Source: a virus. From it: a DNA stretch of 64,000 nucleotides. The position numbers and the translations under genes are program-made. Location: the IMG/VR virus record IMGVR_UViG_3300032038_000062, positions 1-64,000 of that record. One strand, written 5' to 3'. Below are positions 1,911 through 40,366 of the stretch, in pieces (position 1 is the first letter of the stretch; the number at the start of each line of letters is the position of its first letter). Under the pieces are notes generated by a model. It saw only the letters and a list, made by a program, of their open reading frames with translations, ran no database searches and had not been told where the DNA came from.

Positions 1911-1922
1911 ACGAATACCTCC

Positions 1923-2927
1923 TTAAATTTCCGCGGAAAACTCATTAGGTATACCAGCCATTAAATCTTCATATCCGTCATTATCAAAGTTATCCATATC
2001 TTCATAATCTCTATTAAGTCCATACTCGTCGTCTTCTTTATATGTATTATTCTTCTCGTATTCTTGTAATTCTTTCAAGGACTCAATGCGACGACTAATT
2101 TCATCACCAATATTACTCTCATTAACATAAAGGCGTTGATTGAAATTCTGAATATTCTTTATCGTACTATCAACAATATCCCTTGTAACTCCATCATAGT
2201 AATGTGGTTTAAAGCCTCTCTTCGTCAACCAAACAACTAGCTCGCCCGCTGAGTCAAAGTCACTAGCGTTCTTCGCATTCTTTGGAGTAAATTCTGCCGC
2301 CTTTACTAACTTATCATAGGAATTTAAAAGTTTGTCGAAGTCAGAACCTTCTTGAATTTTTTTGTCGATTTCCAATGACATACGGCAAATTTTTAAGGCT
2401 TGGTCTTTCTGTAAAGAACTATTAATATTTTGAGTTGTGTTAATGCCCGCGTAGAGATTTTCTAGGTAGTGTAAGTCTTCCTTACAATATGGTCCCCACT
2501 TCTCTTGAAGTTTTCTAATGTGTTCTTCCGCTACCAAGGGTAGTTCTTCCTCTATCATACCGACTTCCTTTAATTTCTTAAATTCCTGGAAATACTGCCC
2601 CCAATCCAATCCTTCATATTCATCGCTTAGAAAAGCCTCAGCATATTTAGAAAAAGCTTGGTCGCCCGCTAATTCTCTAAAGTGCTCAAACTCTTTTGGA
2701 ATAAAAGGAATATCAGCATATTGGCAAAACTTATTAATAATCTCCCAACTAAAATCTTCCTCTTTTAATAACTTCGCCATACAGTCATTGCACATTGGAA
2801 GGTATCCATCTGGATAGAAGCGGGATTTAGTTCTAGTATAATTGTCTGCTCCGAATGTACCGGCGCATTGTGTACACGTCTTAAAGACAAAACCACTTGG
2901 TTTTTTAACTTTTGGTTGAATACCCAT
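1923..2927 (-). CDS. Hypothetical protein with N-terminal CxxC...CxxC zinc-binding motif
   Basis: 334-aa ORF, CTQCAG...CNDCMAK, tightly spaced after terL. Confidence 0.5.
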   Translation of the reverse strand: MGIQPKVKKPSGFVFKTCTQCAGTFGADNYTRTKSRFYPDGYLPMCNDCMAKLLKEEDFSWEIINKFCQYADIPFIPKEFEHFRELAGDQAFSKYAEAFLSDEYEGLDWGQYFQEFKKLKEVGMIEEELPLVAEEHIRKLQEKWGPYCKEDLHYLENLYAGINTTQNINSSLQKDQALKICRMSLEIDKKIQEGSDFDKLLNSYDKLVKAAEFTPKNAKNASDFDSAGELVVWLTKRGFKPHYYDGVTRDIVDSTIKNIQNFNQRLYVNESNIGDEISRRIESLKELQEYEKNNTYKEDDEYGLNRDYEDMDNFDNDGYEDLMAGIPNEFSAEI

Positions 2928-3403
2928 TATTCCTCACTTCCTTTTCCTTTCTTTTCCGTTTTTGCGCTCTTAACAATTTGAATAAGATTTTTCTTTTGGC
3001 GCGTAGTGAGATTTTGGAAAGATTCTAGAACTTCGCCAAAGATAAGGTAAGCATCCTTGGGAGTAGTTGAAATCTTAAAACGAGTTTCTCCTTCCTCAAT
3101 AATTTTGGTGAGTTTCTTCTTGAGTTCGAGAGCGGTTTTTTCTTCTTCTGTTCCTTCCTCTAAAATTTTTCGCTCCGCCGCTAAATCTTTTTCTTCTTCC
3201 TCTTTCGTATATTCTATTTTTTCTTCTGTTATAATAGGAATATTGAGAAAGCACGCGACGCCTAAAAAGCTAAGCTCGTCTAACTCTAAAATTCCCTTTA
3301 AAAAGCTATCAAAAAGTTTTTGTTCTTTCTTCTTTCTTTCTAATACTTTCATAATACTATTTTGTTTCCTCCTTCTTTTTTCCTCCCCTAATCTCTTTCT
3401 CAC
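2927..3403 (-). CDS. Hypothetical highly charged (K/E-rich) protein
   Basis: 158-aa ORF; start overlaps the upstream gene's stop (ATGA). Confidence 0.4.
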   Translation of the reverse strand: MRKRLGEEKRRRKQNSIMKVLERKKKEQKLFDSFLKGILELDELSFLGVACFLNIPIITEEKIEYTKEEEEKDLAAERKILEEGTEEEKTALELKKKLTKIIEEGETRFKISTTPKDAYLIFGEVLESFQNLTTRQKKNLIQIVKSAKTEKKGKGSEE

Positions 3404-4688
3404 AACTCTTACAACGATTTGAGAATCCGTCTTTCGCTCTTCCTTTCCTCATAAAAAAGTTTGAATCGAGAAGGAGCGTTCTGCCGCAGCGCGCGCAAGT
3501 TTTGAAATTTTCGGGGAAGAAAATATTTCCTATGACTAAGTAATGAAGTTCTGCCGCTTCGTTAATTTTTTTGATGATTTGTTGACGAAAAATTGTTGAA
3601 ATATAGTTGACGGTATAAGAGCGTGAGTATTTTTCGTTAATAAAGTCTGCGATTTTTTGGTTTGGATATTTTTTGATTTTAAGAGAGAGAATATCTCGGT
3701 GAATTGGCGTTAAGTCCGCCATACTAATATAGAAGTTGAGAGTGTCGAGAAGTTCTTGACTAAGGCCTTCGACTTGTGGGGTTTGGGCGGAGTCCTCGAT
3801 ATCGTAGTAGGAAAGAAAAAGTTGGTAAACGTGTTCGAGTTCTCGAAAATCGAAGAAAAGAGGATTTTCTTTCTCGTTGCGCGACCAGTAGATTTGGGAA
3901 ATAGAGGCTAGTTCTTTTTCGGAGAAAGACTTGGGGTCAAGGTTATGGAAATCGGAAAAGAGTTTTTTTGAGGTTTGGTCTTTCTTTTGAAAGATGCCAA
4001 GTGGATAGACTGGGATATCGTAATCGAAAGTTAGGAACTCGGGATGGAATTGAGGTTGCGGAAGAATTGATTGGAGAGGTTCAGAGTAGGAATCGCGAAG
4101 AGAGAATTGTTCTCGGCGCTTTTCTACGAGAAGGTGGCGAAGTTTAAGATATTGGAAAGGATTAAGGGACTTGGCGCGAAGTTCAAGTTTTTCTTTTTCC
4201 TCGTCGGAAAAACGAGAAAGAAGTTCAGAACGGGGAGGAGTCTTTCTCTTCCCACTCTTAATATCGTAGTAGTTTAGGAGAAGATCGAGAGAGTCGATTT
4301 CTAGAAAGAGTTCGGAGAATTTTTCTTTTAGGGGAGTGGGAGCTTTTAAGAGAGCTTCCTCTCGATTAAAGGTTTCTTTCTTAATTTTGAGTGGGGGAGA
4401 AGAAGGAGATAGGATTACTTGTTCGTTAAAAGTTGGGGTTTCGAGAAGAGCGTCTAAAGATTCTTCTTCGTTCTTTCTATTCCAAGTCTTATTTTTAGTT
4501 TCGATATTAATTTCTTTTTTTTGGACTAGGTTTTTTCCGTCTTTTTCTTTTCCCCAAAGTATATAGTTAGCACAAGTTTCTTTCTCTTCGGGAGTTAAAG
4601 AGAAGTTAATTGAGTTTAGGTAGTTATGAAGAAACTCGGTGCGTTCTTCGATTGTGTCTATTGAGAAGTTTAGTTTAAGTCTATTCAT
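3357..4688 (-). CDS. Hypothetical protein with C-terminal zinc ribbon (CARCG...CKSCEK)
   Basis: 443-aa ORF, first gene of the leftward operon, RBS AGGAGG upstream. Confidence 0.5.
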   Translation of the reverse strand: MNRLKLNFSIDTIEERTEFLHNYLNSINFSLTPEEKETCANYILWGKEKDGKNLVQKKEINIETKNKTWNRKNEEESLDALLETPTFNEQVILSPSSPPLKIKKETFNREEALLKAPTPLKEKFSELFLEIDSLDLLLNYYDIKSGKRKTPPRSELLSRFSDEEKEKLELRAKSLNPFQYLKLRHLLVEKRREQFSLRDSYSEPLQSILPQPQFHPEFLTFDYDIPVYPLGIFQKKDQTSKKLFSDFHNLDPKSFSEKELASISQIYWSRNEKENPLFFDFRELEHVYQLFLSYYDIEDSAQTPQVEGLSQELLDTLNFYISMADLTPIHRDILSLKIKKYPNQKIADFINEKYSRSYTVNYISTIFRQQIIKKINEAAELHYLVIGNIFFPENFKTCARCGRTLLLDSNFFMRKGRAKDGFSNRCKSCEKEIRGGKKKEETK

Positions 4689-4913
4689 TATAGCCTCCTA
4701 TTATAATTTTCCCTCTATTAATATTATACCATAGGGTACATTAGTTTGTCAATTTTTAATTTCGTGAAAATTTATGATGTTAAATTTCAATTTTTAATTT
4801 CGTGAAAATTTTGTAGCAGACCCCGTAGGTCGATTACCAAAAATTGGCAAATTTCCTAAAATATACCCCTGTCAATGGGTAAAAAAATAAAGCGGCATAA
4901 AACCGCCTTACTT

Positions 4914-5237
4914 TTATATTATTTCATTTTCCTCGGTTAGATAAATTAAAAACCAGTATAAAATAAATTTTCTATCCTTAATACAGTTGTCAAGAAAAAA
5001 CCATTTGACCTCTGTTTTTGTTTTTCCTCTTGTAAATTCCGCCAAAAGTATTTTGATTTCTTTTCCGGTCTTTTCCTCTAAAAAATCAATGTTGTATTGT
5101 TCCTCTTTCGGGTTAATGATAATATCACCTTTCCAGTATTCCGTAATAAAATCAATTAAATAGATATAGCTTTTTGTCATTGTTAAAACCCCTTTACTTA
5201 AATAAAAATGTTTTGTTTTTCTTGCTAGGGCTTGCAA
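4914..5237 (-). CDS. Hypothetical protein. The real start is probably MTKSY near 5188.
   Basis: ORF plus conserved leader CATTTTTATTTAAGTAAAGGGG before the internal ATG. Terminator hairpin downstream at 4880-4912. Confidence 0.4.
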   Translation of the reverse strand: MQALARKTKHFYLSKGVLTMTKSYIYLIDFITEYWKGDIIINPKEEQYNIDFLEEKTGKEIKILLAEFTRGKTKTEVKWFFLDNCIKDRKFILYWFLIYLTEENEII

Positions 5238-5266
5238 GGCATTTCACCTTGCAAGCCTTATTTTTT

Positions 5267-5899
5267 TTACTTGCTGATACCGTACCATTCAATAAAATCA
5301 TCAAAAGTAATTCCATTAAAAAATAAATCACTTGTAAACTTTTCAAACTTGCTCTTGCTATTAGTAAAAGATTGTATTGACAAAATGTCATAATACCATG
5401 CGCCGCCGCTCTTTTTAACAGTATTCATATAGCCGCTAACTTTCTTGCGAATTAAGCCGTTATTTTTAAGGATATCCATAAAGTCGGATATCTCAAAAAA
5501 TAACACTTGCTTTTTAACGCTCTCTGACGGATAAAACCGCGGTACATACGCGATAAAATCACTTTTCATTAAAGGGCTTGAAGCGATAGAGCCGTCGCTA
5601 TTAAGTGTCGCCAAAGTGCCCGCGCCGCTCTTAATTTCAATTTTAACTTGCTTTCTTTTTTCGCCGTCTTTTTGATACTTTATGCAATCAAATTTGTTAT
5701 TGCCTTGTACCTCTTTAGAGCGGCTATACAAACCTAATTCAAAGTTAACAGCGCGTTCTAAAGCTCTGCCCTCAGCGCCGCTATTAACGCCTTTTTGCGC
5801 TTTTACATGAACATTCACATTTTGCGCGTATTCTAGATACTGTGCAAGCATAGCCGCCGCGATTGCTTTTTTAGTATTGCTGTTGTTGTTGTTTTTCAT
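5267..5899 (-). CDS. Hypothetical protein
   Basis: 210-aa ORF. Shares the 5' leader CATTTTTATTTAAGTAAAGGAG with the 4914 gene. Confidence 0.5.
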   Translation of the reverse strand: MKNNNNSNTKKAIAAAMLAQYLEYAQNVNVHVKAQKGVNSGAEGRALERAVNFELGLYSRSKEVQGNNKFDCIKYQKDGEKRKQVKIEIKSGAGTLATLNSDGSIASSPLMKSDFIAYVPRFYPSESVKKQVLFFEISDFMDILKNNGLIRKKVSGYMNTVKKSGGAWYYDILSIQSFTNSKSKFEKFTSDLFFNGITFDDFIEWYGISK

Positions 5900-6139
5900 T
5901 TTGTTTTTCTCCTTTACTTAAATAAAAATGTTTGGTTTTTGTGCTTTCGCTGCGCTTATTCTATCAGAAAAAAAGACCTTTTACAAGTATTTTCTTGTTT
6001 AGTCAATAATTAAATATTGCACTTTATTAAAACCGCAAGATAGTATTCGTCAATATACACAAAATGAAGTCTAACAAGTCTAAACGGTCTAAAAATGGCT
6101 TATCTATGCGGTTTTAGACCTATTAAGTCTAATACTAAT

Positions 6140-6168
6140 TTGCATTTATCGGGATAATGTGGTATAAT
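6140..6168 (+). promoter_or_regulatory. First early promoter, TTGCAT-N17-TATAAT
   Basis: -35 at 6140-6145, 17-bp spacer, -10 at 6163-6168, extended TG. Sits after the divergent intergenic region. Confidence 0.55.
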
Positions 6169-6191
6169 AATAAGCGAAATGGGGGATTAAA

Positions 6192-6419
6192 ATGAAAATC
6201 TTTGTGAAAAATGACAGTAAGAAAAAGTATTACAATAATGTAATAAACCGCTTAAATAATTACAAAAATGTAATAGAAAAGTTACAAAATGCCCTTAAAA
6301 TATTACAAAAAAGTTACAAGGTTGTAATAAGTATCTCCCTCTGGGCGCTCGACCGGTGTCTGCCGGACAGGTGCGGGCGTATGCCCTCAGTGGCGTCCCG
6401 TGTCAGTATATACGTCTAA
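6192..6419 (+). CDS. Hypothetical small protein. The 3' half runs through a GC-rich hairpin island.
   Basis: 75-aa ORF with RBS GGGGGA. Coding status of the GC-rich second half is uncertain. Confidence 0.4.
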   Translation: MKIFVKNDSKKKYYNNVINRLNNYKNVIEKLQNALKILQKSYKVVISISLWALDRCLPDRCGRMPSVASRVSIYV

Positions 6420-6638
6420 AGGAGCTGCGTTTGGGGACCTGGGAGCTGCGTTTGGCAGCGCGGGCAGCTGCGTTTCAAAAGAAGCTACGCTTTAAAGGGA
6501 GCTACGTCTAAGCGGAGCGTTGCCGCTGTAGGAGCTACAATTTTAGACTATTAAAGTCTAAGAGGAAAAAATAAACTATTGACTTTTTTATAAAAGAGTG
6601 ATATAATAATTATAGAATAAAGAAAGGGGATAAACCTA

Positions 6639-6905
6639 ATGGCAAGATACAAACTTACTTTTACAGACACAGAAACTGGTACAACTTATTTGCTTGATGA
6701 TAATATGCCCAGCTATGACAGCGCGGTTTTTGCCGCTTTGGATTATGTCGCGGACGGCGCAGTCAAAGCGGGCGAAAGTGGCGACACTGCCGCAGAAGTA
6801 AGGCTTTTTAACGCTGGACTTTCCATGGCTATAGAGTTCGCCGGAATGGCTGGGCTTGACTGCGCGAGTTGCTGCGGCTTTACCATCACAAGGAAAGGAG
6901 AATAA
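6639..6905 (+). CDS. Hypothetical early protein
   Basis: 88 aa, RBS AAAGGGGA, preceded by palindrome plus promoter. Confidence 0.55.
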   Translation: MARYKLTFTDTETGTTYLLDDNMPSYDSAVFAALDYVADGAVKAGESGDTAAEVRLFNAGLSMAIEFAGMAGLDCASCCGFTITRKGE

Positions 6906-7037
6906 AAGAGATTGCGCCAAGCGCAATCTTTCTGCCCTTAGGCTTCTAAAGTCTAAATTATTCTACTTTTAATCTTGACAATATTATTATAGTATGATAT
7001 AATATAGATAAAGTAAAAGAAAGGAAAAAGAGTAATT

Positions 7038-7298
7038 ATGGTTTATGTAATGACGTATCATACGCCTGTGGGCAACTTTTTGAGTGCTTGGAGTTCAAGG
7101 GACGCCGCTATTGAAGCTGTTTACACAATGATTGTAAATGGATATAAAGAAGCAAAGGCAGAAGGAAATGACAAAGCGGCAAACGAATTTTATGATATGG
7201 GATTGAAAGCTAATAAAGCATTTGCCGCTGGCAAGAATGACTTTGAGAGATGGCAGATTATTCCCTTGGAGATGGATACATTAGTTCAAGACGACTAA
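7038..7298 (+). CDS. Hypothetical early protein
   Basis: 86 aa, RBS AAAGGAAAAAGAG, own promoter. Confidence 0.55.
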   Translation: MVYVMTYHTPVGNFLSAWSSRDAAIEAVYTMIVNGYKEAKAEGNDKAANEFYDMGLKANKAFAAGKNDFERWQIIPLEMDTLVQDD

Positions 7299-7326
7299 GG
7301 TTATAGGTGACCATAACCTTTTTTCT

Positions 7327-7381
7327 TTAGACTTCTAAAGTCTAAGCAGAGATTGACAAAAGAAAAGAGATATGATATAAT
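7327..7381 (+). promoter_or_regulatory. Palindrome TTAGACTTCTAAAGTCTAA (7327-7345) plus early promoter TTGACA-N17-TATAAT (7353-7381)
   Basis: Representative of about 21 such units. Read directly. Confidence 0.7.
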
Positions 7382-7407
7382 ATGGATAGAATAAAGGAGG
7401 AGATATT

Positions 7408-7764
7408 ATGAAAGAAAAGAAAAAGAAAGAGAAAGATAACTTCCGTTTCTTTTTCATGACTATAAGTATACTTACTGCTGTAGTTGTTATTCTTGTGGGA
7501 TTTGTCGTAGTGATTTTGGAGTATAACACATCAATAGCGAGAATAAAAGTAAACATCTATCCGCTTTTAACCACAGTCACAGGAGTAGACAGAGATAAAG
7601 ACCTCGTAACCGTAGAAGATAATAACGGCTTTATCTGGCAGTTCGAAGGCGCAGATGATTGGGAAGAAGGCGACTTATGTAATTGCCTTATGGATAGCCA
7701 AGGAACAGAAAAAATTTTTGATGATGAAATTATAATGACAAAATATGAAAGCGGCGCGAGGTAG
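7408..7764 (+). CDS. Hypothetical membrane protein (one TM)
   Basis: 118 aa, RBS AAAGGAGGAG, hydrophobic segment ILTAVVVILVGFVVVIL. Confidence 0.55.
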   Translation: MKEKKKKEKDNFRFFFMTISILTAVVVILVGFVVVILEYNTSIARIKVNIYPLLTTVTGVDRDKDLVTVEDNNGFIWQFEGADDWEEGDLCNCLMDSQGTEKIFDDEIIMTKYESGAR

Positions 7765-7904
7765 CGCCCTTTCTTTCTTATTTTAGTTTAGACTTCTAAA
7801 GTCTAAGATTTTCTTGGAATTTTTTGGAAAAAATTTTTTGGAATTTTTCTTAAAATATATTAATTTCCTAAAATTAAGGGTTGACATTTTCCCATAATTA
7901 TGGT

Positions 7905-8100
7905 ATAATATAGACAATGAAAGAGAGAGAGAAGGGAATGATTCCAATGTGGTTGTAATTCACTAAACAATTCAATCAATAAACCATTCGATTGATAAAC
8001 CAGATGTACCAGACAGAAAGGGTTAAAGCAATGGCAAGAGATTCTCCCAATTAAGATAATATTGATATTTTGCTACGGAGGGGAATAATCCCCTTCTTTT
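7905..8100 (+). ncRNA. Candidate small non-coding RNA (promoter-to-terminator unit with no ORF)
   Basis: Early promoter GGGTTGACA...TGGTATAATATAGAC at 7868-7905. About 180 nt with only a 13-codon ORF. Strong terminator GGAGGGGAATAATCCCCTTCTTTTTT at 8073-8100. Confidence 0.45.
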
Positions 8101-8263
8101 TTATGTATTTTTAGACTTCTAAAGTCTAAGGACAAAAAATTATTTTGAAAAAGTAGTTGACTTTTTTATAACTCTATGATATAATATAGATACAGTCAAG
8201 GGAGATAGAAACCGACTGAATATAAAATTTGGGTGGCGACCGTCGCTAAAGGAGTTTTTATAA

Positions 8264-8616
8264 TGGCAGAAAAGAAGTACACACAGAGAGATTTTCTCAC
8301 AGATGTAATTAATGGAGTATTTAACGAAACCGTGACCGGCTACGCTCAGGAGCGCCTCAATAAGCTCGACGAGAAGAACGAGAAGCGCAAGGCAGAAACT
8401 TCTGCTAATCAGCTTAAAAACGCCCAGCTTTTGGAGGACTTCGTAACATTCATCACCGAGCAGGAGGAGCCGCAGACCACAACCGAAATTGCTAACCACT
8501 TCGGCTTGTCAACTCAGAAGGTTGCCCCGATTATGGCTAACGGCGTAAAGACCGAGCGCGTGACCGAAACCACGAAAACGGTCAACAAGAAGAAGTACAA
8601 GGCATACACCGCCTAA
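8264..8616 (+). CDS. Winged-helix DNA-binding protein, paralog A
   Basis: 117 aa from ATG 8264 with RBS AAAGGAG. C-terminal TTTEIANHFGLSTQKVAPIMANGVKTERV resembles a wHTH recognition helix plus wing. Paralog of 11769..12116. Confidence 0.6.
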
Positions 8617-8802
8617 GAAAGGAAAGGGTTACAAGTTTGTAACCCTTTTTCTCTTTTCCCTCCTTAGACTTCATATGTCTAACATATTTTTTATATTTTT
8701 AATAAAATATTAGTAATTAATTTGTATAATTTTTTGACTTTTATAGAAAAAACAATTATAATAATAGTAGAAAGAATGGAAAGAAAGGGAGGTTATAGCT
8801 CA

Positions 8803-8973
8803 ATGATTTGCAAAGTCAAGGAAAGTTTTGAACTATCAGAAATAGAGAAAAAAGTTTATGCTGATTTCCAAGAAATTCTAATTCAAATGAAAGAGGTTGC
8901 AACTGTTTCTGATACAAGACATTTAATTGAAACTATTTATTGTGACTTAGTAACTTTAATACCTCAGGTTTAG
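8803..8973 (+). CDS. Hypothetical small early protein
   Basis: 56 aa from ATG 8803 with RBS AAAGGGAGG. The upstream part of the 8722 ORF overlaps the promoter. Confidence 0.45.
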   Translation: MICKVKESFELSEIEKKVYADFQEILIQMKEVATVSDTRHLIETIYCDLVTLIPQV

Positions 8974-9075
8974 ACTTTAGAAGTCTAAGAAAATAGTATT
9001 TTTTCAAAAAAATAATTGACAAATAAAATTTTTTATGATATAATAATTATAGAAAATTGAAAGGAGGCTATTTTA

Positions 9076-9468
9076 ATGGCTACATCAAAAACTGCTTTGC
9101 GTGAAAAAGTGAGAAATTTTTATCTTGATAAAATCACAAAATTTCTTGACGGCGAGGGCGAAGAAATTTTGATGATTAAAACAAATCAATTTTGTTTTCC
9201 TGTGGTTGATGATGAAGGGAATGAATTGTTTATAAAAGTTGTTGTTTCTGTACCGAACGGCTCGAAGGACAAGAACGGTGCTACAATTCCCTTTGACGGC
9301 TACGGAGAGGCAATTGGTTATGAAACTGAGAAAAAGCAAAAAGAGGAAAAGAAAGCAGAGAAGGCAAAGAAAAAAGCCGAAAAAATGGAGCGTGACAGAT
9401 TGGAACGCCAGAGAAAGAAAGAACAGCAGGCAAACAAAGAAAAATACAGAGAGGGAAAAGGGGCATAA
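9076..9468 (+). CDS. Lys-rich early protein, paralog A (C-terminal K/E/R tail ending KGKGA)
   Basis: 130 aa. Paralog of 14235..14597, sharing the start of the N-terminal domain and the tail. Confidence 0.6.
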   Translation: MATSKTALREKVRNFYLDKITKFLDGEGEEILMIKTNQFCFPVVDDEGNELFIKVVVSVPNGSKDKNGATIPFDGYGEAIGYETEKKQKEEKKAEKAKKKAEKMERDRLERQRKKEQQANKEKYREGKGA

Positions 9469-9578
9469 AAACCCCTTTTTTCTCTAAAGGAATTTTAGAC
9501 TTCTAAAGTCTAAACAAGGGTTGACTTTTCTTTTATTGTATGATATAATATAACTACAGTAAGAAAAGGAGTGATTAA

Positions 9579-9779
9579 ATGTATATTGTAAAAAGACCGC
9601 AAGTTGTTTTAACAACTAAAGACCTTCAGGCAATCCGCACAACTATGCTGATATTAGATGAAGTTCTCGACAAGGACGATAACCTTGTGCTTGATATTGA
9701 TACTTCTTCAATAGCAAGGGCTTATGAAACTTTATGCGAGTTTGTTAAAGATTGCGAGATAGATGAGGAGGAAGAATAA
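9579..9779 (+). CDS. Hypothetical acidic early protein
   Basis: 66 aa, RBS AAAAGGAG. Confidence 0.5.
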   Translation: MYIVKRPQVVLTTKDLQAIRTTMLILDEVLDKDDNLVLDIDTSSIARAYETLCEFVKDCEIDEEEE

Positions 9780-9960
9780 AATGATGATTATTTGCGCAAT
9801 TTTTATTGCTGTCGGCATTATCGCTACGGTTGTCACCGCTATTAAGATTGATTTAAGTCACGACCCCACGCCGCCGCTGATTTTGTTTTTCTTTATAAGC
9901 GCAATCGTTACATTAAGCGCTATTGTCAGTTTTATCGTTGGTCATTTTACAGGAGTATGA
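9780..9960 (+). CDS. Small membrane protein (two TM)
   Basis: Start MMII with RBS GAGGAGG in the stop region of the upstream gene (translational coupling). Confidence 0.5.
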
Positions 9961-10101
9961 AGGTAAAACTTCATACTTTTTTTTACTATCTGTTTAGACT
10001 TCTAAAGTCTAAACTTTAATAGCAAGAGAAAAAAATTTTTTGAAAATGTATTGACTTTTTTATAATACTATGATATAATATAAATACAGTAAAGAAAGGA
10101 T

Positions 10102-10560
10102 TTGATAAACTTGAAAAGAAAAATTTGGTTCGATATGGATGGAACAATCGCTAACCTGTACGGCGTGGAAAATTGGCTTGACGATTTGAGGGCAGAAGTC
10201 CCACGACCGTACAAAATCGCAAAAGCAAATGTTAATTTGTCCCTTCTGGCTCGTTATCTCAACAAGTTGAGGGCGGGCGGCTATAAAATCGGCGTTATTA
10301 GTTGGACTTCCATGAAGTCAAGCCGAGAATATGAAGAAGAAGTCGCCGCCGCAAAAATTCATTGGCTTATCAATCACCTCCCTTCTGTTTGGTTTGATGA
10401 AGTTAATATTGTACCCTACGGCACAGAAAAAAATCTTTTCAATAAAGGGCGCGACCTGCTTTTTGATGATGATATCAGAGTAAGGGAAAAATGGACAGGC
10501 GAAAGTTATCCTCCCGAACAGATTTTCGACGTACTGCACAACTTGATTTCGGCGCTTTAA
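10102..10560 (+). CDS. HAD-superfamily 5'(3')-deoxyribonucleotidase-like hydrolase
   Basis: DMDGT motif I (IWFDMDGTIANLY). Size and layout resemble NT5C-type nucleotidases. The start may be TTG at 10111. Confidence 0.55.
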   Translation: MINLKRKIWFDMDGTIANLYGVENWLDDLRAEVPRPYKIAKANVNLSLLARYLNKLRAGGYKIGVISWTSMKSSREYEEEVAAAKIHWLINHLPSVWFDEVNIVPYGTEKNLFNKGRDLLFDDDIRVREKWTGESYPPEQIFDVLHNLISAL

Positions 10561-10672
10561 TGCGCTGAAATCTTTTTAGAAAATTTAGACTTCAAAAGTC
10601 TAAGAAAGAATAGAAAGGGGTTGACTTTTCTATAATTGTATGGTATAATATAGATAAGAAAGGAGGAGAAAT

Positions 10673-10912
10673 ATGAATATTCAATTAATCAGTAATGTAA
10701 AAATTAATTTAGAACCTTCAGAACTTAATGCTATAAATACTACAAAAAAAGTTTTAGAAAGAATTGAAGAAATTATTGATAGCGTCAAGAATGCCAATTT
10801 TTGGGAGTTTTTAAGCGAATATTATGATAATGATATTATAGAACTGCTTGACGATTTCCAACAAGATGATAGGTTAGAACGCCGCATTAAAGAATATCTC
10901 TGGGAGATATGA
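10673..10912 (+). CDS. Hypothetical early protein
   Basis: 79 aa, RBS AAAGGAGGAG. Confidence 0.5.
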   Translation: MNIQLISNVKINLEPSELNAINTTKKVLERIEEIIDSVKNANFWEFLSEYYDNDIIELLDDFQQDDRLERRIKEYLWEI

Positions 10913-11037
10913 CGACGAGGAAGAAGATTTTTAATCTTCTTCTTTTTTCTTTAGACTTCAAAAGTCTAAACTATAATTGACAAAAAATTTTATTTATGAT
11001 ATAATATAAATACAAAAAAGGAAAGCTGGGAGAAAAA

Positions 11038-11166
11038 TGAAAGAAAAACTTAACGAAATCGAAAAAGAAATTAAAGAAAAAATGGAAGAAAGCATATATA
11101 ATGACGATATTTATATTACTGTAACTATCGTTTTCGAAGTATTACACTCTATATTAGACGATTAGG
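11038..11166 (+). CDS. Small early protein (42 aa)
   Basis: Own promoter TTGACA..TGATATAAT at 10978-11013, RBS AAAGGAAAG, ORF below the 60-aa track cutoff. Confidence 0.4.
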
Positions 11167-11270
11167 CGGTCGCCGCTTTGTGATTTAGACTTCTAAAGTC
11201 TAAATTTTTATTGACCTATTAAATATATTATGATATAATATAAATGTAATAAAGAAAGGAGATTGTTTTA

Positions 11271-11582
11271 ATGTGTAAAAAAACTAAATATAAAAATTAT
11301 CGAATTGGAAAGTATCTTTTCACTGTAGAAATAAAAAAAGGCTGTGACTGTTTTGGAGATTATTTTTACATCACCATAAGAGATAGACACGACGCGCCGC
11401 GGAACTTTTTTGAGAGAATTAAACTAAAATTTAAGAACGAATATGCTATTGGAGATTCTTGCTGGCGCCCACTTTTTGACAAAAAAAATTTTGAGCGCTT
11501 TATCCTTGATAAGTTAGATTTTATTGTAGACAATAAATTTAACTTAGAAGAAGCAAACATTTTATGGGAAAATCTCGAATGA
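11271..11582 (+). CDS. Hypothetical early protein
   Basis: 103 aa, RBS AAAGGAGA. Confidence 0.5.
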   Translation: MCKKTKYKNYRIGKYLFTVEIKKGCDCFGDYFYITIRDRHDAPRNFFERIKLKFKNEYAIGDSCWRPLFDKKNFERFILDKLDFIVDNKFNLEEANILWENLE

Positions 11583-11768
11583 GATTTTCTTTTTGATTTT
11601 CTTTTAGACTTACAAAGTCTAAACCCCTAAATTTTTTTTGAAAAAAGTATTGACTTTTTTATTAAAATAGTTTATAATATACTTGTAAGGTTGAGAAAGG
11701 AAAGAAACCTTAATGAAACCTACAAAATAAAAATTTGGGTTGCGACCTACGCAAGAAAGAGGTTTATT

Positions 11769-12116
11769 ATGGCAGACAAGTACACTCAGAGAAATTTTTT
11801 GACAGACGTTATCAACGGCAATATTACCGAACAGGTGACCGCCTACGCCGAGGAAAGACTTGCGAAACTTGACGAGAAGAACGAAAAGCGCAAGGCTGAA
11901 ACCTCCGCCAATCAGCTCAAAAATATCCAGCTCGGCGAGGATATTGTCGCCTTCGTTACCGAGAACGGCGCGCAGACTACTTCCGAGATTGCAAGACAGT
12001 TCGGTGTTTCTACTCAGAAGATTGCGCCTATCACCAACGCACTTGTGAAGGAAGGCAAGCTGACCGAAACCACAAAGACGGTAGACAAGAAAAAGTATAA
12101 GGCGTTTACAGTTTAA
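11769..12116 (+). CDS. Winged-helix DNA-binding protein, paralog B
   Basis: 115 aa from ATG 11769. About 60% identical to 8264..8616, with a conserved leader and stem-loop upstream. Confidence 0.6.
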   Translation: MADKYTQRNFLTDVINGNITEQVTAYAEERLAKLDEKNEKRKAETSANQLKNIQLGEDIVAFVTENGAQTTSEIARQFGVSTQKIAPITNALVKEGKLTETTKTVDKKKYKAFTV

Positions 12117-12237
12117 CCGCCGAGGGGTACGCAAGTACCCCGACTTTTTTTAGATTTTCTTAGACGTTGTAAGTCTAAGATTAAATTGACTTTATTTTAT
12201 TTTATGGTATAATATAAATAATGAAGGAGGTAATATA

Positions 12238-12636
12238 ATGAAAATTCAGTATATTGCAAATGACGGAAAAATTTTTGATAATGAGTTTGACTGTCGGGAA
12301 TATGAGTCAAAAAAACAAGTAGATGAATTTCTCAATAAAAGAGAGCTAATCTTCTTGTCACGCTCAGGAGAAGTTCTTTTCGGAGAGATTGACGATTGCG
12401 CCGAGAGAGCTACTTATATTTTTGTTAATAGCGAGGCGGCACTTCAAGCTCTTTGGGGAGAAAATGAATGTCAGCGAGAAATCCGCCCACCCGAAGAAGG
12501 ATATTGGTATTATGATTATGAGTATGAAACCTGGAGAAGCATGAAAACTCAGGTTGAAATATTAGAAAATGAATTAGCTGAACTCAATAAAATTTATGAC
12601 CGCTTTGATTATCTTATAAGAAAACCTCAAGACTGA
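12238..12636 (+). CDS. Hypothetical early protein
   Basis: 132 aa, RBS GAAGGAGG. Confidence 0.5.
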   Translation: MKIQYIANDGKIFDNEFDCREYESKKQVDEFLNKRELIFLSRSGEVLFGEIDDCAERATYIFVNSEAALQALWGENECQREIRPPEEGYWYYDYEYETWRSMKTQVEILENELAELNKIYDRFDYLIRKPQD

Positions 12637-12747
12637 GGTTTTCTTTTTATTTTATTCTTAGACTTCTAAAGTCTAAAGTTAAATTGACTTTTTTAATCTT
12701 CTGTGATATAATATAGTTACAGTAAAGGAAAGAGAAAGGAAAATAAA

Positions 12748-12990
12748 ATGAAAGTAAAAACTAATAAATTTTGGGAAATTATCAACTATCTGTGTTTGAT
12801 TGGTCTTGTTATCGGTCAAATTACCGTAGGCTATGCTTACATCTTTGCGCAAATTATCTATCTGATTTGTAATACCGCCTCCGTTATTCGTGATATTAAA
12901 TTGCGGTTGCCGCCCTCTAATATTGTTAGGGACGCTTGCTTTACTGCAATTACTATTGGCTTAATTATTATCCGAGCGTTTTTCGGCTAA
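12748..12990 (+). CDS. Small membrane protein (two TM)
   Basis: 80 aa, RBS AAAGGAAAA. Confidence 0.5.
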   Translation: MKVKTNKFWEIINYLCLIGLVIGQITVGYAYIFAQIIYLICNTASVIRDIKLRLPPSNIVRDACFTAITIGLIIIRAFFG

Positions 12991-13215
12991 AATATCCTCC
13001 TTTACTTTATAGGTAGGCGTGGGCAATAGTCCACGCTATCCTATTAAAATTAGTTTAGACTTCCAAAGTCTAAGCCCACTCGTTGGGCGGTTAGCATAGG
13101 CTAACTTTTATTTTCTTTGAAAAAACTATTGACAAAACCGAAAAAATATGATATTATATATATGTCAGTTAGAGAGCGAAGGCAAACCTAAATTGACAGA
13201 AAGGAAAGTGATAAT

Positions 13216-14110
13216 TTTGAATTTTGAAAACAAAATTGACCGAAGAAAAAAATATTATTTGGTTTTTGATTGTGAAACCGCGACTTTGCCCTTCGCGGCA
13301 ACCATTGAAGAACCAAAAGACAAACAAAAAATTGCTATTGCTAAACCATTAATTTATGACTTGGGATGGCAGGTAATTGACCGCAAAGGGAATGTATATT
13401 GCCGCCGCTCGTATTTAGTCAGCGAAATTTTTTCCGTTCCTGCGGTTTTTAATACCGCGTATTATGCAAGCAAGCGCCCGATTTATCTTGATAAATTGGC
13501 AAAAGGTGAAATTATCCTGACCGATTGGAAAACAGCCACTGCAAAACTAGAAGAAGATTTACAAAAGGTTGAAGCGGTCGGCGCTTATAACTCAATGTTT
13601 GACTATAAAAAAGCAATTCCATTTACAGAAAAATATATCAAGATGTTATATTCTCCATACTATTATAAATGGGAAGAAAAGCAAATTGAGCATTGCAAGC
13701 ACATTTTATCAACGCCATATTATAAAAGTGATAATGAATTTAACCCTGAGATTTTCGAATTTAGGGATAAACAATATGCACTTTTTGACCTTTGGGGGCT
13801 GAGTTGCCGCCACCTCTTAAACAATAATGAATACAAACAAACTTGCATTAATAACGAATGGAAAACGGCAAGCGGGAAATTTTTCAAAACAAGCGCAGAA
13901 ACCGCATTCAGGTTTTTAACAAAAAACAATGATTTTATAGAAAGTCACACGGCTATTGAAGATACTATAATTGAGAGCCAAATTTTGACCGAAATTATAA
14001 AGCGCACAAAAAACAAATTTGAATTGGGGATTATTTATTTTCCCTTCCGTGAACTCGGAACAGTTAAAGATTTTGAAAACACACACGACAATATTTTTGA
14101 TTTATTCTAA
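13216..14110 (+). CDS. DEDDh-family 3'-5' exonuclease (DnaQ-like), paralog A
   Basis: Exo I LVFDCETATLP, Exo II YNSMFDYKKA, Exo III HTAIEDTIIES. Start TTG or GTG near 13207-13216 after RBS AAAGGA. Conserved leader shared with paralog B. Confidence 0.7.
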
Positions 14111-14234
14111 AAGAAAAAGGTTACAGAAATGTAACCTTTTTCCTCCAAAACTACCTTAGACTTTGTAAGTCTAAACCCTATTTGACTTCTCTATAATTAT
14201 ATAGTATAATATAGATAATAAAGGAGGTAATAAT

Positions 14235-14597
14235 ATGGCAAGTCGTTCTCAATTAAGAGCTAAAATCCGTCAAAAATATCTAACCCAAATTCGTGATTTT
14301 CTCAAATCACAAGGCGAAGAAGTTTTACTGACAAAAAGTAACCAACTGGCGATTCCAACCTGTGATGACGAAAACAACGAAGAAACACTTACAATTACTT
14401 TTGCTGTCCCTCTCGGCTCTAAAGCAGATAATGAACCTTTTGACCCATACACCGCTGCGGAAGTTTACGCACAAAATACAGAAAATAAAAGGGTTGAGGC
14501 TGAAAAGAGAGCAAAAGCAAAAGCAGAAAAAATTAAAAGAGATAAGGAGTACAGAGAAAAACAAAAAGCAAACAAAAAGAAAGGAAAAGGCGCATAA
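14235..14597 (+). CDS. Lys-rich early protein, paralog B
   Basis: 120 aa; same architecture and KGKGA end as 9076..9468. Confidence 0.6.
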   Translation: MASRSQLRAKIRQKYLTQIRDFLKSQGEEVLLTKSNQLAIPTCDDENNEETLTITFAVPLGSKADNEPFDPYTAAEVYAQNTENKRVEAEKRAKAKAEKIKRDKEYREKQKANKKKGKGA

Positions 14598-14788
14598 GCC
14601 TTTTCTTTTTAGAAGAATTTAGACTTTAGAAGTCTAAATCTTATGCTGCGGCGGTTAGCATAGACTAACTAAAAAATTTTTTATAAATTTATAAAAAAGT
14701 ATTGACAAATTAAAAAATCTATGCTATAATTGTATTGTCAGTTAGGGAAAGACGTTAAATCTAAATTGACAGAAAGAGGTTGATAATT

Positions 14789-15670
14789 TTGAATTTTGAA
14801 AAAAAACTTGACCGCCGCCGCAAATACTACCTTGTATTTGATTGTGAAACGGCAACTTTACCCTACGCGGCAAATTTTGAGGGTAAGGCAAGACAGGCAA
14901 TTTCTATTGCTAAACCATTAATTTATGATTTGGGTTGGCAAGTGATTGACCGTCAAGGCAATATTTACCGCCGCCGTTCGTACCTTGTTAGCGAAATTTT
15001 CAGCGTCCCTGCGGTTTTCAATACTGCATATTACGCAAGTAAACGTCCGATTTATCTCGAAAAATTAAATAATAACGAAATTATCCTGACCGACTGGAAA
15101 ACAGCCACCGCAATATTAGAAAAAGATTTGCAAGAGGTTTGCGCCGTTGGTGCTTATAATTCAATATTTGACTTTAAAAAAGCGATACCATTTACAGAAA
15201 GATATATAAAAGCGTTGTACTCACCGCACTATTATAAATGGGAACGGCGGCAAAACGAAATCTGCGACCGAATCGCAAGCGGAGAAATTCAAGAGAATAA
15301 TCAGACTTTTGACCCAGAAAATTTTTTCTTTAGAGAAAAAAATTATCCGTTGTTTGACCTTTGGGGCTTAAGTTGTAAACACTTATTAAATAATGATGAT
15401 TATAAAAAATCTTGTATTATGAATAAGTGGGAAACGGCAAGTAAAAAATATTTCAAAACTTCGGCGGAAACTTCATTTAGATATTTAACAAAAAATGATG
15501 ACTTTGAAGAAGCGCACACAGCTATTGAAGATACAATAATTGAGAGCTTAATTTTTGCCGAAATTGCAAAACGTACTAAAAATAAATTTGAAATGGGAAT
15601 TATTTATTTTCCGTTTAGAATTTTAGGCACTGTCAAACAATTCAAGGAACTAAACGATATTTTCGATTAA
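14789..15670 (+). CDS. DEDDh-family 3'-5' exonuclease, paralog B
   Basis: About 70% identical to paralog A; motifs LVFDCETATLP / YNSIFDFKKA / HTAIEDTIIES. Start TTG at 14780 or 14789. Confidence 0.7.
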   Translation: MNFEKKLDRRRKYYLVFDCETATLPYAANFEGKARQAISIAKPLIYDLGWQVIDRQGNIYRRRSYLVSEIFSVPAVFNTAYYASKRPIYLEKLNNNEIILTDWKTATAILEKDLQEVCAVGAYNSIFDFKKAIPFTERYIKALYSPHYYKWERRQNEICDRIASGEIQENNQTFDPENFFFREKNYPLFDLWGLSCKHLLNNDDYKKSCIMNKWETASKKYFKTSAETSFRYLTKNDDFEEAHTAIEDTIIESLIFAEIAKRTKNKFEMGIIYFPFRILGTVKQFKELNDIFD

Positions 15671-15798
15671 AGAAAGAAAAGGTTACAGAAATGTAACCTT
15701 TTCCCCCCCAAAATTATTTTAGACTTTGTAAGTCTAAATCCTATTTGACTTCTCTATAATTATATAGTATAATATAGATAATAAAGGAGGCGAAGATA

Positions 15799-16074
15799 AT
15801 GGTAGGCTATAAAATTATGAAAAATTTTGATAATTATAGATACACTTATACAGAAACAGTAGCAATTTGCTTATCTTTTGAAAGGGCAATACAATATCTT
15901 ATTGAAGAATGCGGCTTAGATGAAAATTATATCTATTCTGATTTTTATGGAAAAACCACATTAAAAGACGCATTCGGTAAAAACTGGTTATCAGAATTAA
16001 TTAATAATAAAATAACTTATTTTTCTTTTGAAGATTGTGATTATGAGATTGAAGAATGTAATATTTTAGAATAG
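15799..16074 (+). CDS. Hypothetical early protein
   Basis: 91 aa, RBS AAAGGAGG. Confidence 0.5.
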   Translation: MVGYKIMKNFDNYRYTYTETVAICLSFERAIQYLIEECGLDENYIYSDFYGKTTLKDAFGKNWLSELINNKITYFSFEDCDYEIEECNILE

Positions 16075-16360
16075 GGCACTCAGTGCCCCTTTTTATTTTA
16101 GACTTACGAAGTCTAAACTTTTCTAACCTTAGACTTACAACGTCTAAACTCATCAAATTTTCTCTCCCTCGTCAAACTTCTCACTATCTCGCGCCCAGTC
16201 ACTTCGTGTGTGTGTCCCCTAGTCTCCCTTTTCTAGCTTTTCTCCTGAAATGAGCTACGTTTTAAAATTTGAAATTATAAGGAAAAAGCGCTATAATATA
16301 TATAGAAAGTTAAGAAAGAATTAAAAGACTTTCAATCTATAAAAAAGAAAGGGAAACTAA

Positions 16361-16708
16361 ATGGAAAAGAAGATTACAGAAAAAGAGGTTATTAAAAGAC
16401 TTTCTCTCGGAGAATGTGACGAGGAAATGATTGAGTGGGCAACAGGTAAATATGAGAAGCTGTTAGCCGCCGAAGAGAAGAAAGCCGAGAAACAGAAGGA
16501 AAAAGCTCTTGAGAATAAGCCGATTATCGAAGCAATCGAAAGTGTACTCACAGATGAATACCAACCCGCATCAGTATTTGCTAATGCTGCGGACGTTAGC
16601 GTTCAGAAGATTGTCCACGTTCTAAAGGCTATGGATTCGGTAGAAGTCGGAGAAATTAAGATTACCGGAAAAGGAAAGTCAAACGGATATAGAAGAAGAG
16701 AGGTTTAA
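16361..16708 (+). CDS. Hypothetical early protein (last gene of the cassette)
   Basis: 115 aa, RBS AAAGGGAAA, promoter TTGAAA-N17-TATAAT at 16268-16296, terminator at 16700-16730. Confidence 0.5.
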   Translation: MEKKITEKEVIKRLSLGECDEEMIEWATGKYEKLLAAEEKKAEKQKEKALENKPIIEAIESVLTDEYQPASVFANAADVSVQKIVHVLKAMDSVEVGEIKITGKGKSNGYRRREV

Positions 16709-16709
16709 C

Positions 16710-17650
16710 CTCTCTTTTTTTTATACCCTTATTATTATATTATTATAATATTATAATATAATATAATATATAATAAAAAAATATTATAATAAAAATTTGA
16801 AAAAAAGCTAGAGCTGGGGCAGCACCAAATTATACCAAATCATACGATTTCATACCAAATCACACTATTTTATATAACTTTATACCTTCTCATATCCTTT
16901 TATATTCCCTTATACCCCTTTATATCCCCTTATACCAAACTATACAATTCCCTATAACCTTATACCAAACCATACACTATTCTCTACTACTAAACCCCTT
17001 TAATTCCTACTAAACCCCTTTATCTATTTCTAAACTAATTCCCCTTTGAACTTCCTCTTCTGAGTACTCGTCAGTTAGGAAAGACTCGAATCCTATACCC
17101 TTCCACTAATCTACCTAGATACGCCTATTGTAAGCAAACACAACGTTTTTCTTTTCGCTTAGAGCACAATCCTATTATTATAATATTATAATAAAACGTA
17201 TAAGCCCACCCATACGTTTTTCTTATACGCTTTTCTACGAATCCTATTATTATAATATTATAATATTATAAGCCCACTTATACGCCCAATTATCAGCTTT
17301 TTTATACGCTCCTATTGGAATCCTATTATAATAATATTATAAGAAAGATTATAAGCCCACTTATACGCTCTTCTACGAATCCTATTATTATAATATTATA
17401 ATATTATAATAAGATTATAATAGGATTATAATAAAACGTTGTTGTCTCGCCTAGCGCTAAAGCGCAAGGCTCAACCTATGGCTACGCCGTTGTCGCCTTA
17501 TGCTCTTCGAGCAACGGCAAAAACGTCTTCGCACAACGGGGAAGGAAGAAAACAAAGGGAACACAATTCTATTATTATATTATTATATTATAATATTATT
17601 ATAATATTTCTTAATTTGATAATAAGTATTTTTTTCTAATAATTCCTACA
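16710..17650. repeat. AT-rich repeat region at the convergence of early and leftward transcription
   Basis: Multiple palindromic ATTATAATATTATAAT elements. Four direct repeats of about 65 bp (AATCCTATTATTATAATATTATAATA...TAAGCCCACYYATACG) at about 17160-17440. Short TTATACC / CTTTATA repeats at 16830-17040. GC-rich island at 17440-17560. Confidence 0.7.
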
Positions 17651-17926
17651 AAATTTTAATCCCAGAATTCTTGGAAAATTTTTGGAAAATTTTCTATCCC
17701 ATAAAAGAGATTTCTGGAAAATTTCCCATTATTAGGTCGCGCCCGTCCGCATAAAATCGTTCAAATCCTAAAAAAAAGAAAGAGAGGACTAGCCTCTCTT
17801 TTATTCATATCTTATATATTCTTTTGAAGGAATAGTTATATCATACTCTGTTTGGCGAAAGCTTGTGCCTTGTAATATCTTCACAAACGTCAGCATGAAC
17901 ACATTCTTTACAAGTTGCCATAACAA

Positions 17927-39752: not shown

Positions 39753-39826
39753 TGGCGGCGCCGCCCAGACTCGAACTGGGAAGGACAGAATCAAAATCTG
39801 TTATGTTACCATTACATCACGACGCT
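39753..39826 (-). tRNA. tRNA-Gln (anticodon TTG)
   Basis: Hand-folded cloverleaf; anticodon loop TTTTGAT; A1/C72 unpaired (Gln-like weak 1:72); CCA encoded. Confidence 0.55.
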
Positions 39827-39935
39827 ATATCTATGGACTTTCTGATAGATGGGCAACTTCAACGAGAGGTTTTCTATCTTTTTGGTATCCATTACGAGGG
39901 CTTATCCCAACCAACCTATCACGTGAGTAGGAAAT

Positions 39936-40028
39936 TGGCGACGCGGGTGAGACTCGAACTCACACACCACCGAAGTGATTACTCAGGGATTAGCAATCCC
40001 CTATCTTACCAATTAGGCTTACCGCGCC
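39936..40028 (-). tRNA. tRNA-Ser (anticodon GCT), type II
   Basis: Long variable arm, loop TTGCTAA, T-loop TTCGAGT, CCA encoded. Confidence 0.7.
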
Positions 40029-40198: not shown

Positions 40199-40366
40199 CA
40201 TGTTACCTCGCATTTATATAAAATGAAGTAGATAAGGATTTGCACCTTATATGTGCCTTAGTATCCTCCAAAAAAATCCCGTACATAACGTCTCGGTTTT
40301 AATTACAGTCTGTTACCCACAGCAACGCTTGCGTCTACCTATTCCGCCACTACTTCATATATCTAC

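Follow-up and report, generated by a model that had tools for sequence, protein, structure and literature searches.

The stretch of DNA considered here (the window) comprises the 64,000 nucleotides (nt) at positions 1 to 64,000 of IMG/VR virus record IMGVR_UViG_3300032038_000062. Its terminase is 38-41% identical to those of Geobacillus virus E3 and Enterococcus phages H1 and VRE9, which would place the phage near the large Firmicutes siphoviruses. About 22 small genes, arranged as 21 promoter units, make up a cassette at 6040..16300 on the plus strand, and every promoter in it is preceded by one copy of a palindrome, TTAGAC-N7-GTCTAA, which is the subject of this analysis. As the first-pass annotation of this DNA had it, the cassette is inverted relative to the rest of the window: the genes between 6192 and 16708 are on the plus strand, those of the flanks (87-5899 and 17927-61836) are on the minus strand, and the GC skew flips at the cassette borders. 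A unit consists, in this order, of palindrome, sigma-A-type promoter, ribosome-binding site (RBS), open reading frame (ORF) and, in most units, terminator. The promoters are near-consensus (TTGACw-17-TGnTATAAT, with the TG extension in most). An independent consensus scan for TTGACA-17-TATAAT returned 20 promoters on the plus strand that match at 11 or more of the 12 positions and one that matches at 10 (6139), in agreement with the TTGAC(A/T)-N17 promoters described earlier. Downstream of them are the roughly 22 small ORFs with strong Shine-Dalgarno sequences, and terminator-like hairpins number 27 where 7.2 are expected. The statement that nearly every gene has a private unit holds for the promoters, the ORFs and most terminators, but the fifth unit has no ORF, and no promoter adjoins the palindromes at 16098 and 16129. 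Neither Pfam nor NCBIfam gave a match to the cassette genes, and if we call them early and host-takeover genes, it is from their architecture only.

The window holds 21 exact matches to TTAGAC-N7-GTCTAA, all within 6114-16147, against a mean of 0.01 and a maximum of 1 in shuffled sequences. The sequence at 6938-6956 (TTAGGCTTCTAAAGTCTAA), 18 bp 5' of the promoter at 6975, is a 22nd copy that has one mismatch; the rest of the 64 kb contains a single relaxed match, at 45494. The array is real and far beyond chance, and the perfect inverted repeat previously put at about 20 copies occurs in 21, plus the mismatched one. Alignment of the sites as a position matrix gave invariant arms and a centre of low information, and showed the site to be longer than claimed. 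The full site is tTTAGACTT-NNN-AAGTCTAAa, of 19-21 bp, in which the 8-bp arms are essentially invariant (2 bits per position), the flanking T/A shows about 75% conservation and the 3-bp centre carries less than 0.7 bits. The half-site centres are 11 bp apart, so that the half-sites lie on one helix face. The site has the make-up of an operator, a dyad whose conserved half-sites are separated by about one turn of the helix and whose centre is degenerate. Three direct half-sites (AAGTCTAA, AAGTCTAA and CGGTCTAA), 10 and 9 bp apart, can also be read in the sequence where the cassette begins on the left (6067..6093, plus strand).

In nine units of the window the palindrome is separated from the -35 box by 7 bp; the gap is 6 bp in one, 17 bp in two, 18 bp in one, 27 bp in three and 38 bp in one; the remaining gaps, of 51, 55, 64 and 74 bp, occur in one unit each. 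This refutes the earlier statement that the palindrome ends at a fixed 8-10 bp from the -35 box, the gaps ranging from 6 to 74 bp. Nor is there a fixed distance of about -58 from centre to start: the modal centre is at about -52, the start site being an inferred position, taken as 7 nt after the -10 hexamer.

Read from left to right, palindrome 1 (TTAGACCTATTAAGTCTAA; 6114..6132) stands 6 bp from the promoter at 6139-6168 and upstream of the gene at 6192-6419, palindrome 2 (6543..6561) stands 17 bp from the promoter at 6579-6607 of gene 6639-6905, and the mismatched palindrome 3 (TTAGGC...GTCTAA) precedes the promoter at 6975-7003 and gene 7038-7298. Palindrome 4 (7327..7345; gap 7) is followed by the promoter at 7353-7381 and gene 7408-7764. 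After palindrome 5 (7788..7806) the gap is 74 bp, and between the promoter at 7881-7909 and the terminator at 8077-8096 there is no ORF. The next unit has palindrome 6 at 8111..8129, a gap of 27 bp, a promoter at 8157-8185 and the first of three paralogous winged helix-turn-helix (wHTH) genes, at 8263-8616 (its start, given earlier as 8264, is corrected to 8263). Palindrome 7 (8664..8682), with the centre CAT and the right arm ATGTCTAA, is separated by 51 bp from the promoter at 8734-8762 of gene 8803-8973. Palindrome 8 (8970..8988) overlaps the stop codon of this ORF, with no terminator between; 27 bp farther on come the promoter at 9016-9044 and the first copy of a family here called F5 (9076-9468). 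Palindrome 9 (9495..9513; gap 7; promoter 9521-9549) is followed by two genes, 9579-9779 and 9781-9960, and palindrome 10 (9994..10012; gap 38; promoter 10051-10079) by a nucleotidase-like gene, 10111-10560, which has weak NT5C and phrog_2643 matches.

The gap is 17 bp at palindrome 11 (10585..10603; promoter 10621-10649, gene 10673-10912) and 7 bp at both palindrome 12 (10951..10969; promoter 10977-11005, gene 11037-11165) and palindrome 13 (11185..11203; promoter 11211-11239, gene 11271-11582). Palindrome 14 (11604..11622) lies 27 bp from the promoter at 11650-11678 and ahead of the second wHTH paralog (11769-12116). A gap of 7 bp recurs at palindrome 15 (12160..12178; left arm TTAGACGT, right arm AAGTCTAA; promoter 12186-12213, gene 12238-12636) and at palindrome 16 (12658..12676; promoter 12684-12712), in front of the gene for a small membrane-like protein (12748-12990). 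The two copies of a gene for a phrog_20187 protein stand behind longer gaps, of 55 bp at palindrome 17 (13055..13073; promoter 13129-13157, gene 13217-14110) and of 64 bp at palindrome 19 (14619..14637; promoter 14702-14730, gene 14789-15670); between them, palindrome 18 (14156..14174; gap 7) precedes the promoter at 14182-14210 and the second F5 copy (14235-14597). Palindrome 20 (15719..15737; gap 7; promoter 15745-15773) belongs with gene 15799-16074. The last cassette terminator (16074-16088) is followed by palindrome 21 (16098..16116), with no promoter after it, and, 31 bp after palindrome 21, by palindrome 22 (16129..16147), whose nearest promoter, at 16269-16297, is 121 bp off and precedes the third wHTH paralog (16361-16708).

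A megablast search of GenBank phages with the cassette gave no match, a scan of IMG/VR for the motif (95 stretches) gave single, apparently chance matches except on one contig (split over L010 and L086), and a literature search for the motif found nothing relevant. Relatives were recovered with the conserved 297-amino-acid (aa) phrog_20187 protein of the cassette as bait, which led to 3 loci in IMG/VR and 80 in metagenomes; their contigs, from assemblies of rumen and human gut, are as long as 185 kb. According to de novo palindrome counting, most of these loci have an array of this kind, of 15-24 palindromes in each cassette and with arms that are switched by genome (see below).

The spacing between palindrome and promoter was analysed in 44 related metagenomic loci, with 531 palindromes and 373 distinct spacers. 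The gaps fall into classes of 7-9 bp (202), 17-19 bp (158), 27-30 bp (48) and 37-40 bp (16), with a small further group at 48-56 bp and almost none between the classes. They are periodic at 10-10.5 bp (Rayleigh R = 0.83), although the Rayleigh p-values overstate independence, because the units are paralogous and the genomes related. The same quantisation is found with the 373 distinct spacer sequences alone, indicating that it is not merely copied sequence. The preferred multiple differs by genome (7 bp in the window, 18 bp in L119, L123 and L124, 28 bp in L161), and orthologous genes stand behind different multiples in different phages. The register depends on the arm variant, being 7/17/27-28/37-38 bp with ACTT and 8-9/18-19/28-29/39 bp with ACGT, ACTA and ATGA. 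Given this start site, the sites are centred near -52, -62, -72 and -83. In the distal classes TTTT-G-AAAAAA is found directly 5' of the -35 box and looks like a proximal UP subsite. A reading of the palindrome as a sigma-factor promoter element is ruled out by the variable 10n spacing.

Almost all copies in one genome have identical arms, with a drifting centre; from genome to genome the two arms switch together (TT/AA, GT/AC, TA/TA, TGA/TCA, TTGGAC). The arms TTAGACTT/AAGTCTAA are shared by the window, L096, L101 and L106-L109, TTAGACGT/ACGTCTAA are found in 11 long loci and TTAGACTA/TAGTCTAA in 6, L133 has TTAGATGA/TCATCTAA, and L116 has the variant TTGGACGT. In the most distant relative, L098, the place of the site is taken by another palindrome, of 13 bp (TACGTT-S-AACGTA), and the gaps are 12, 32 and 42-43 bp. 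Close relatives may have different arms, as do L132 (ACGT) and L133 (ATGA), whose cassette proteins are 85-91% identical, or L135 (ACTA) and L118 (ACGT), and several variants coexist in the same metagenomes. The constancy of the arms within a genome, together with their symmetric switching between genomes, fits a sequence-specific dimer acting in trans, since a structure-only element would show compensatory variety. Some relatives without the palindrome (L097, L136, L148, L154, L156, L160, L164, L166, L173 and L300) share another motif, TTGCACAA(A)/TTTGTGCAA, which in each of them lies upstream of 3-5 cassette promoters, often as a long inverted repeat, and may be an alternative operator system.

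It is likely, as far as the DNA sequence can tell, that the palindrome is the operator of a sequence-specific homodimer which acts on RNA polymerase from one face of the DNA, at all early promoters together. Its geometry relative to the promoter is in keeping with this proposal, the gaps being quantised except in four of the 21 window units. The first-pass annotation had likewise taken the palindrome for the operator of a dimeric protein, co-regulating the whole cassette, rather than for an RNA hairpin; the phased gaps, the symmetric switching of the arms, the reversed units and the weakness of the hairpin all argue for its view. A strong rightward promoter lies within 100 bp of 403 of the 513 palindromes with enough flank. 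Four units are reversed, with a leftward promoter at a gap of 7-8 bp; they keep the spacing, and so the site works in either orientation. One of these, at 12098-12378 in L096, looks like a unit exactly inverted between two palindromes, again with the 7-bp gap kept.

An RNA hairpin on read-through transcripts, serving as terminator, processing site or stabiliser, is extremely unlikely. The palindrome could indeed form an A/U-rich 8-bp stem with a 3-nt loop, and it lies downstream of possibly leaky terminators, but the structure is worth only -6.5 kcal/mol and has no U-tract. It is followed 3' by A/G and then by variable sequence, and the true terminators are found 1-19 nt upstream. Since the next promoter lies downstream of the palindrome, primary transcripts do not contain it. 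Moreover, its stems are invariant in sequence within a genome, with no compensatory pairs, its spacing to the -35 box is phased, and an Rfam search of the whole window revealed no family at the palindromes or the leaders. Integron attC sites were likewise considered and rejected. Those have the inverse core RYYYAAC on the 5' side and the core GTTRRRY on the 3' side, and their cassettes are promoter-less; the arms here are in the inverse order (TTAGAC...GTCTAA) and each unit has its own promoter.

The terminators themselves suggest a different role, in which a protein bound to the palindrome would act as a roadblock or insulator that stops read-through, or in which the palindrome would aid termination. 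Indeed, 425 of 528 palindromes begin 1-19 nt after the stem of an upstream terminator, and they do so even where no promoter follows (16098 in the window and 12098 in L096). Yet the distance to the terminator varies continuously over these 1-19 nt, with no periodicity (R = 0.2), while that to the promoter is quantised. Palindromes 1 and 8 of the window have no upstream terminator, and in reversed units the palindrome is on the promoter side, at the canonical gap. We regard this explanation as very unlikely.

Another view would make the palindrome mainly a recombination point, providing crossover homology in the manner of the PeSL elements of T4-type phages, with regulation as a secondary matter. 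Gene content does turn over fast between lasting palindromes and promoters: few cassette genes are common to the window and L096, and the repeats that flank these shuffled ORFan genes persist. Units numbering N are flanked by N+1 palindromes, including promoter-less copies at the ends, and the exact inversion in L096 has its precedent in PeSL, where units are inverted or exchanged between flanking repeats (PMC2839356, PMC4122927). However, recombination requires neither the quantisation by helical turns, nor an invariant arm beside a free centre, nor a symmetric switching specific to each genome. PeSL and the present units also differ in composition. In the former, a sigma-70-type early promoter is combined with a G+C-rich stem-loop that is itself the terminator, and there is no separate operator. 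Here, promoter and terminator are both present in each unit, the terminator stems are not conserved in sequence, and the conserved element is an AT-rich palindrome which is invariant within a genome, does not terminate, and is phase-locked to the -35 box.

Enterococcus phage H1 (L299; OP534061.1, 91.5-102.7 kb) is instructive in this respect. It has the same inverted cassette, with about 23 small genes and consensus promoters, but neither the palindrome nor F5. Instead, the -35 hexamer lies in the loop of a terminator hairpin (e.g. aaagggg-TTGACA-acccctttttt), a true PeSL-like composite. The H1 cassette is thus equally modular without the palindrome, which is therefore dispensable for modularity and would be an added regulatory layer in the uncultured clade. 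As the main function of the palindrome, recombination is distinctly unlikely; as a secondary one, the sites could serve as crossover points for a PeSL-like shuffling of units, which would fit the inverted unit and the fast turnover of genes.

Returning to the operator reading, we infer protein binding and contact with RNA polymerase, as well as the sign and timing of the effect, along the following lines. A homodimer would bind one palindrome upstream of each of the approximately 21 host-type (sigma-A-like) early promoters, with its centre at about -52 or one, two or three helical turns farther (about -62, -72 and -83). As all these positions are on one face, the bound protein would always face RNA polymerase from the same side. 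At -52 it would occupy the place of the polymerase alpha subunit's C-terminal domain (alpha-CTD) and of the UP element (UP region -43 to -61), and at the distal positions it would sit just upstream of the UP-like A-tract. By contact or competition with the alpha-CTD, one protein would set all early promoters together. Because the promoters are near-consensus and must fire before phage proteins exist, its most likely role would be to shut off or damp early transcription in a coordinated way once the early phase is over. Alternatively, the protein might activate by recruiting polymerase, and architectural bending is also conceivable.

The repressive version has a likeness in phi29, another Firmicutes phage, in which proteins bound at upstream sites repress strong sigma-A early promoters by way of the alpha subunit or by obstructing its UP element; there, host Spo0A acts at A2b, A2c and C2, and represses the early promoter A2b by keeping the alpha-CTD off the UP element (PMC2731898). 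The difference is that phi29 has three early promoters and few sites, of differing sequence, whereas here about 21 promoters share an identical palindrome at quantised distances. No similarity of the palindrome to p4 sites or to the Spo0A box was seen. [quoted passage not shown]

Class I activators of the CRP type also bind as dimers on one face, beside the alpha-CTD, at increments of about 10.5 bp upstream of the promoter; the positions known for CRP are -61.5, -71.5 and -82.5. Unlike promoters that depend on an activator through a weak -35 box or UP element, those of the cassette already match the consensus at 11-12 of 12 positions and so would need no activation. In addition, about -52 is not a classical class I position and the motif is unrelated to the CRP/FNR consensus.

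Several observations, besides the non-independence of the units noted above, speak against the operator reading. The gaps of 51, 55, 64 and 74 bp are off the simple phase, and the start sites from which the centres are reckoned are putative. No strong promoter is found within 100 bp of 106 of the 513 palindromes, and some copies lie between convergent terminators or at promoter-less cassette ends, such as those at 16098 and, in L096, at 12098. These copies and the proximity of so many palindromes to a terminator would also fit a role at junctions or as an insulator. The sequence is silent on the sign and the timing of the effect. Finally, among the ORFs clustered from 35 loci, each of at least 8 kb, no family varies in step with the palindrome variant and no binder was found, and the best candidate has awkward properties, as follows.

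F5 occurs in all long palindrome loci but one partial contig, as well as in L098, and is absent from all 13 palindrome-less relatives. In a rough bait-protein tree the palindrome-less loci fall at no fewer than three places, an argument that is weakened by mosaicism. The model of F5 (pLDDT 89) consists of an acidic alpha/beta domain and a 54-residue helix rich in K, A and E, with no informative structural neighbour and no recognisable DNA-binding fold. Furthermore, F5 is 91% identical between L132 and L133 despite their different arms. It is the best lead to a binder on the ground of co-occurrence, which is an association only. Nothing decisive for a co-varying protein emerged from the class-switch pairs L132/L133 and L135/L118 within flanks of 10 kb on each side.

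The first-pass annotation had named two wHTH paralogs as candidate binders. The fold would suit this: the three proteins of this family in the window have a winged helix behind a 46-residue helix (AF2 model, pLDDT 86), their C-terminal 60 residues superpose on the winged-helix domains of MarR, PadR and ROK proteins at 1.5-2.5 A (Foldseek), and their Pfam scores are near the curated cut-offs (22.4 versus 24.6 for MarR, 20.8 versus 20.7 for FaeA). Against it, the family is universal, being present in all clustered loci, including the palindrome-less ones, and also in Enterococcus phage H1, Phass-1, L301 and L097, and the residues of helix 3, aligned by class, do not track the palindrome variant. 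As specificity determinants the wHTH proteins are therefore rejected, though they may yet bind the site. A conserved 5' leader precedes each wHTH gene inside the cassette (8200-8262 and 11725-11768; also 2328-2362 in L010). It has a hairpin just 5' of the RBS, the stem of which shows compensatory changes (GGCGAC/GTCGC versus TTGCG/CGCAA); as an RNA element, the leader may act in autoregulation or stabilisation.

The gene for the binder may also lie elsewhere, or in the host. A broad Pfam annotation of the neighbouring window genes, made for a regulator, left almost all without a match. The divergent gene at 5267-5899, considered as a repressor, was dropped, as it matched neither a family nor a PDB entry. 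The approximately 55 window proteins scanned included no ParB/KorB-like one, the scan leaving out some 30 window ORFs and the rest of the genome. Beside the cassette, 3357-4688 (minus strand) encodes a 443-aa protein whose residues 278-432 match a PHROG labelled 'sigma factor' (phrog_5767; E = 4e-14) and which has a zinc ribbon at the C-terminus. Pfam and NCBIfam lend this no support; the protein may be a sigma factor by which the phage transcribes later genes.

Were a host transcription factor to bind the site, the early promoters of the phage would be coupled to the physiological state of the host. The repression of phi29 early promoters by host Spo0A bound upstream offers a precedent (PMC2731898), Enterococcus phage H1 has five Rex-box-like palindromes (TTGTGAA-N4-TTCACAA) around its cassette (at 455, 796, 1156, 9829 and 10191 of L299), and no phage protein was found to co-vary with the site. 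However, close relatives that likely share hosts differ in their arms (the two pairs above), several variants coexist in the same metagenomes, and no host regulon was recognised among the matches listed in a scan of 185,579 species' genomes. A host factor is thus unlikely. Among those listed matches, clear multi-copy arrays (more than three copies in one stretch) were found only on L228 and L214 (4 copies), likely mis-binned phage, while L288 (3 copies) and L263 and L295 (2 each) were left unexamined. The labels of these two contigs, Bacilli in one case and Erysipelotrichaceae in the other, are a hint at the host.

A bolder extension of the operator reading, which we deem rather unlikely, assumes a fast-evolving operator-regulator pair of the phage itself. 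[quoted passage not shown]

Several other features of the window and its relatives deserve mention. Unit 5, with its consensus promoter, its terminator and no ORF, may be an early small RNA gene of about 170-190 nt; a counterpart was found only in the close relative L101 (82% identity), and Rfam gave no match. An extra conserved hairpin (GGTTAGCATAGGCTAAC plus a T-run) is found at 13089-13106 and about 14655-14672, and also in L096 near 9770. It sits between palindrome and promoter of both phrog_20187 genes, units with off-phase gaps of 54-64 bp. The assignment of the phrog_20187 protein as a DEDD exonuclease, considered on the strength of motifs spotted by eye and of the label 'exodeoxyribonuclease' given in phage H1, was rejected, as neither Pfam nor PDB supports it. 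Short repeats (GAGCTGCG / GAGCTACG) cluster near both cassette ends (6420-6540 and 16240-16255) and are kept in L010 (2095-2165). Right after the cassette and the third wHTH gene, 16720-17900 is AT-rich, non-coding and dense in short direct repeats (ATTATAATATTATAA, ATACCAAA, CTTATACGC); L010 has an equivalent stretch, which in the window may be an origin or a genome end. The right cassette end of L010 also has perfect Gram-positive LexA (Cheo) boxes (CGAACATATGTTCG; about 1949-1962 and 2000-2013). Imperfect ones surround the first palindrome of L096 (about 995-1050), and the window has none at the equivalent places. Farther away on the minus strand are about 25 tRNA genes with a 'skipping-rope' sRNA (39756-48500; RF02924, 44432-44512, 56.5 bits) and a 2292-aa ORF (50538-57416) whose sole match is a C-terminal DUF6273 domain.

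Operators repeated at many promoters have a counterpart in the KorA/KorB systems of IncP plasmids, in which one short palindromic operator, bound by one dimeric protein, recurs at many promoters at variable distances and puts a whole backbone gene set under joint control. The cassette differs in having one site per promoter, in its helical quantisation, and in being a phage element. The block of small early genes can also be likened to the host-takeover module of SPO1, a cluster of about 26 genes in the terminal redundancy, each or nearly each of which has a strong host-type promoter, RBS and terminator. No protein homology to the SPO1 takeover genes was seen, and to our knowledge SPO1 has no equivalent repeated operator. 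We file the present finding as an operator regulon on a modular early cassette, a known kind in a new form.

The early or host-takeover gene sets of the large Firmicutes phages are poorly understood, and the phages considered here are uncultured, with rumen and human-gut contigs of 115-185 kb. By means of a 21-bp site at every early promoter, the early regulon could be delimited from sequence alone in metagenomic phage genomes. The relatives also provide a natural series of spacings (about -52, -62, -72 and -83) and of specificities (ACTT, ACGT, ACTA and ATGA) with which the action of an upstream factor on a Gram-positive RNA polymerase might be studied. The 21-mer TTTAGACTTCTAAAGTCTAAA would be a DNA-affinity handle for the regulator, which possibly belongs to an undescribed protein family.

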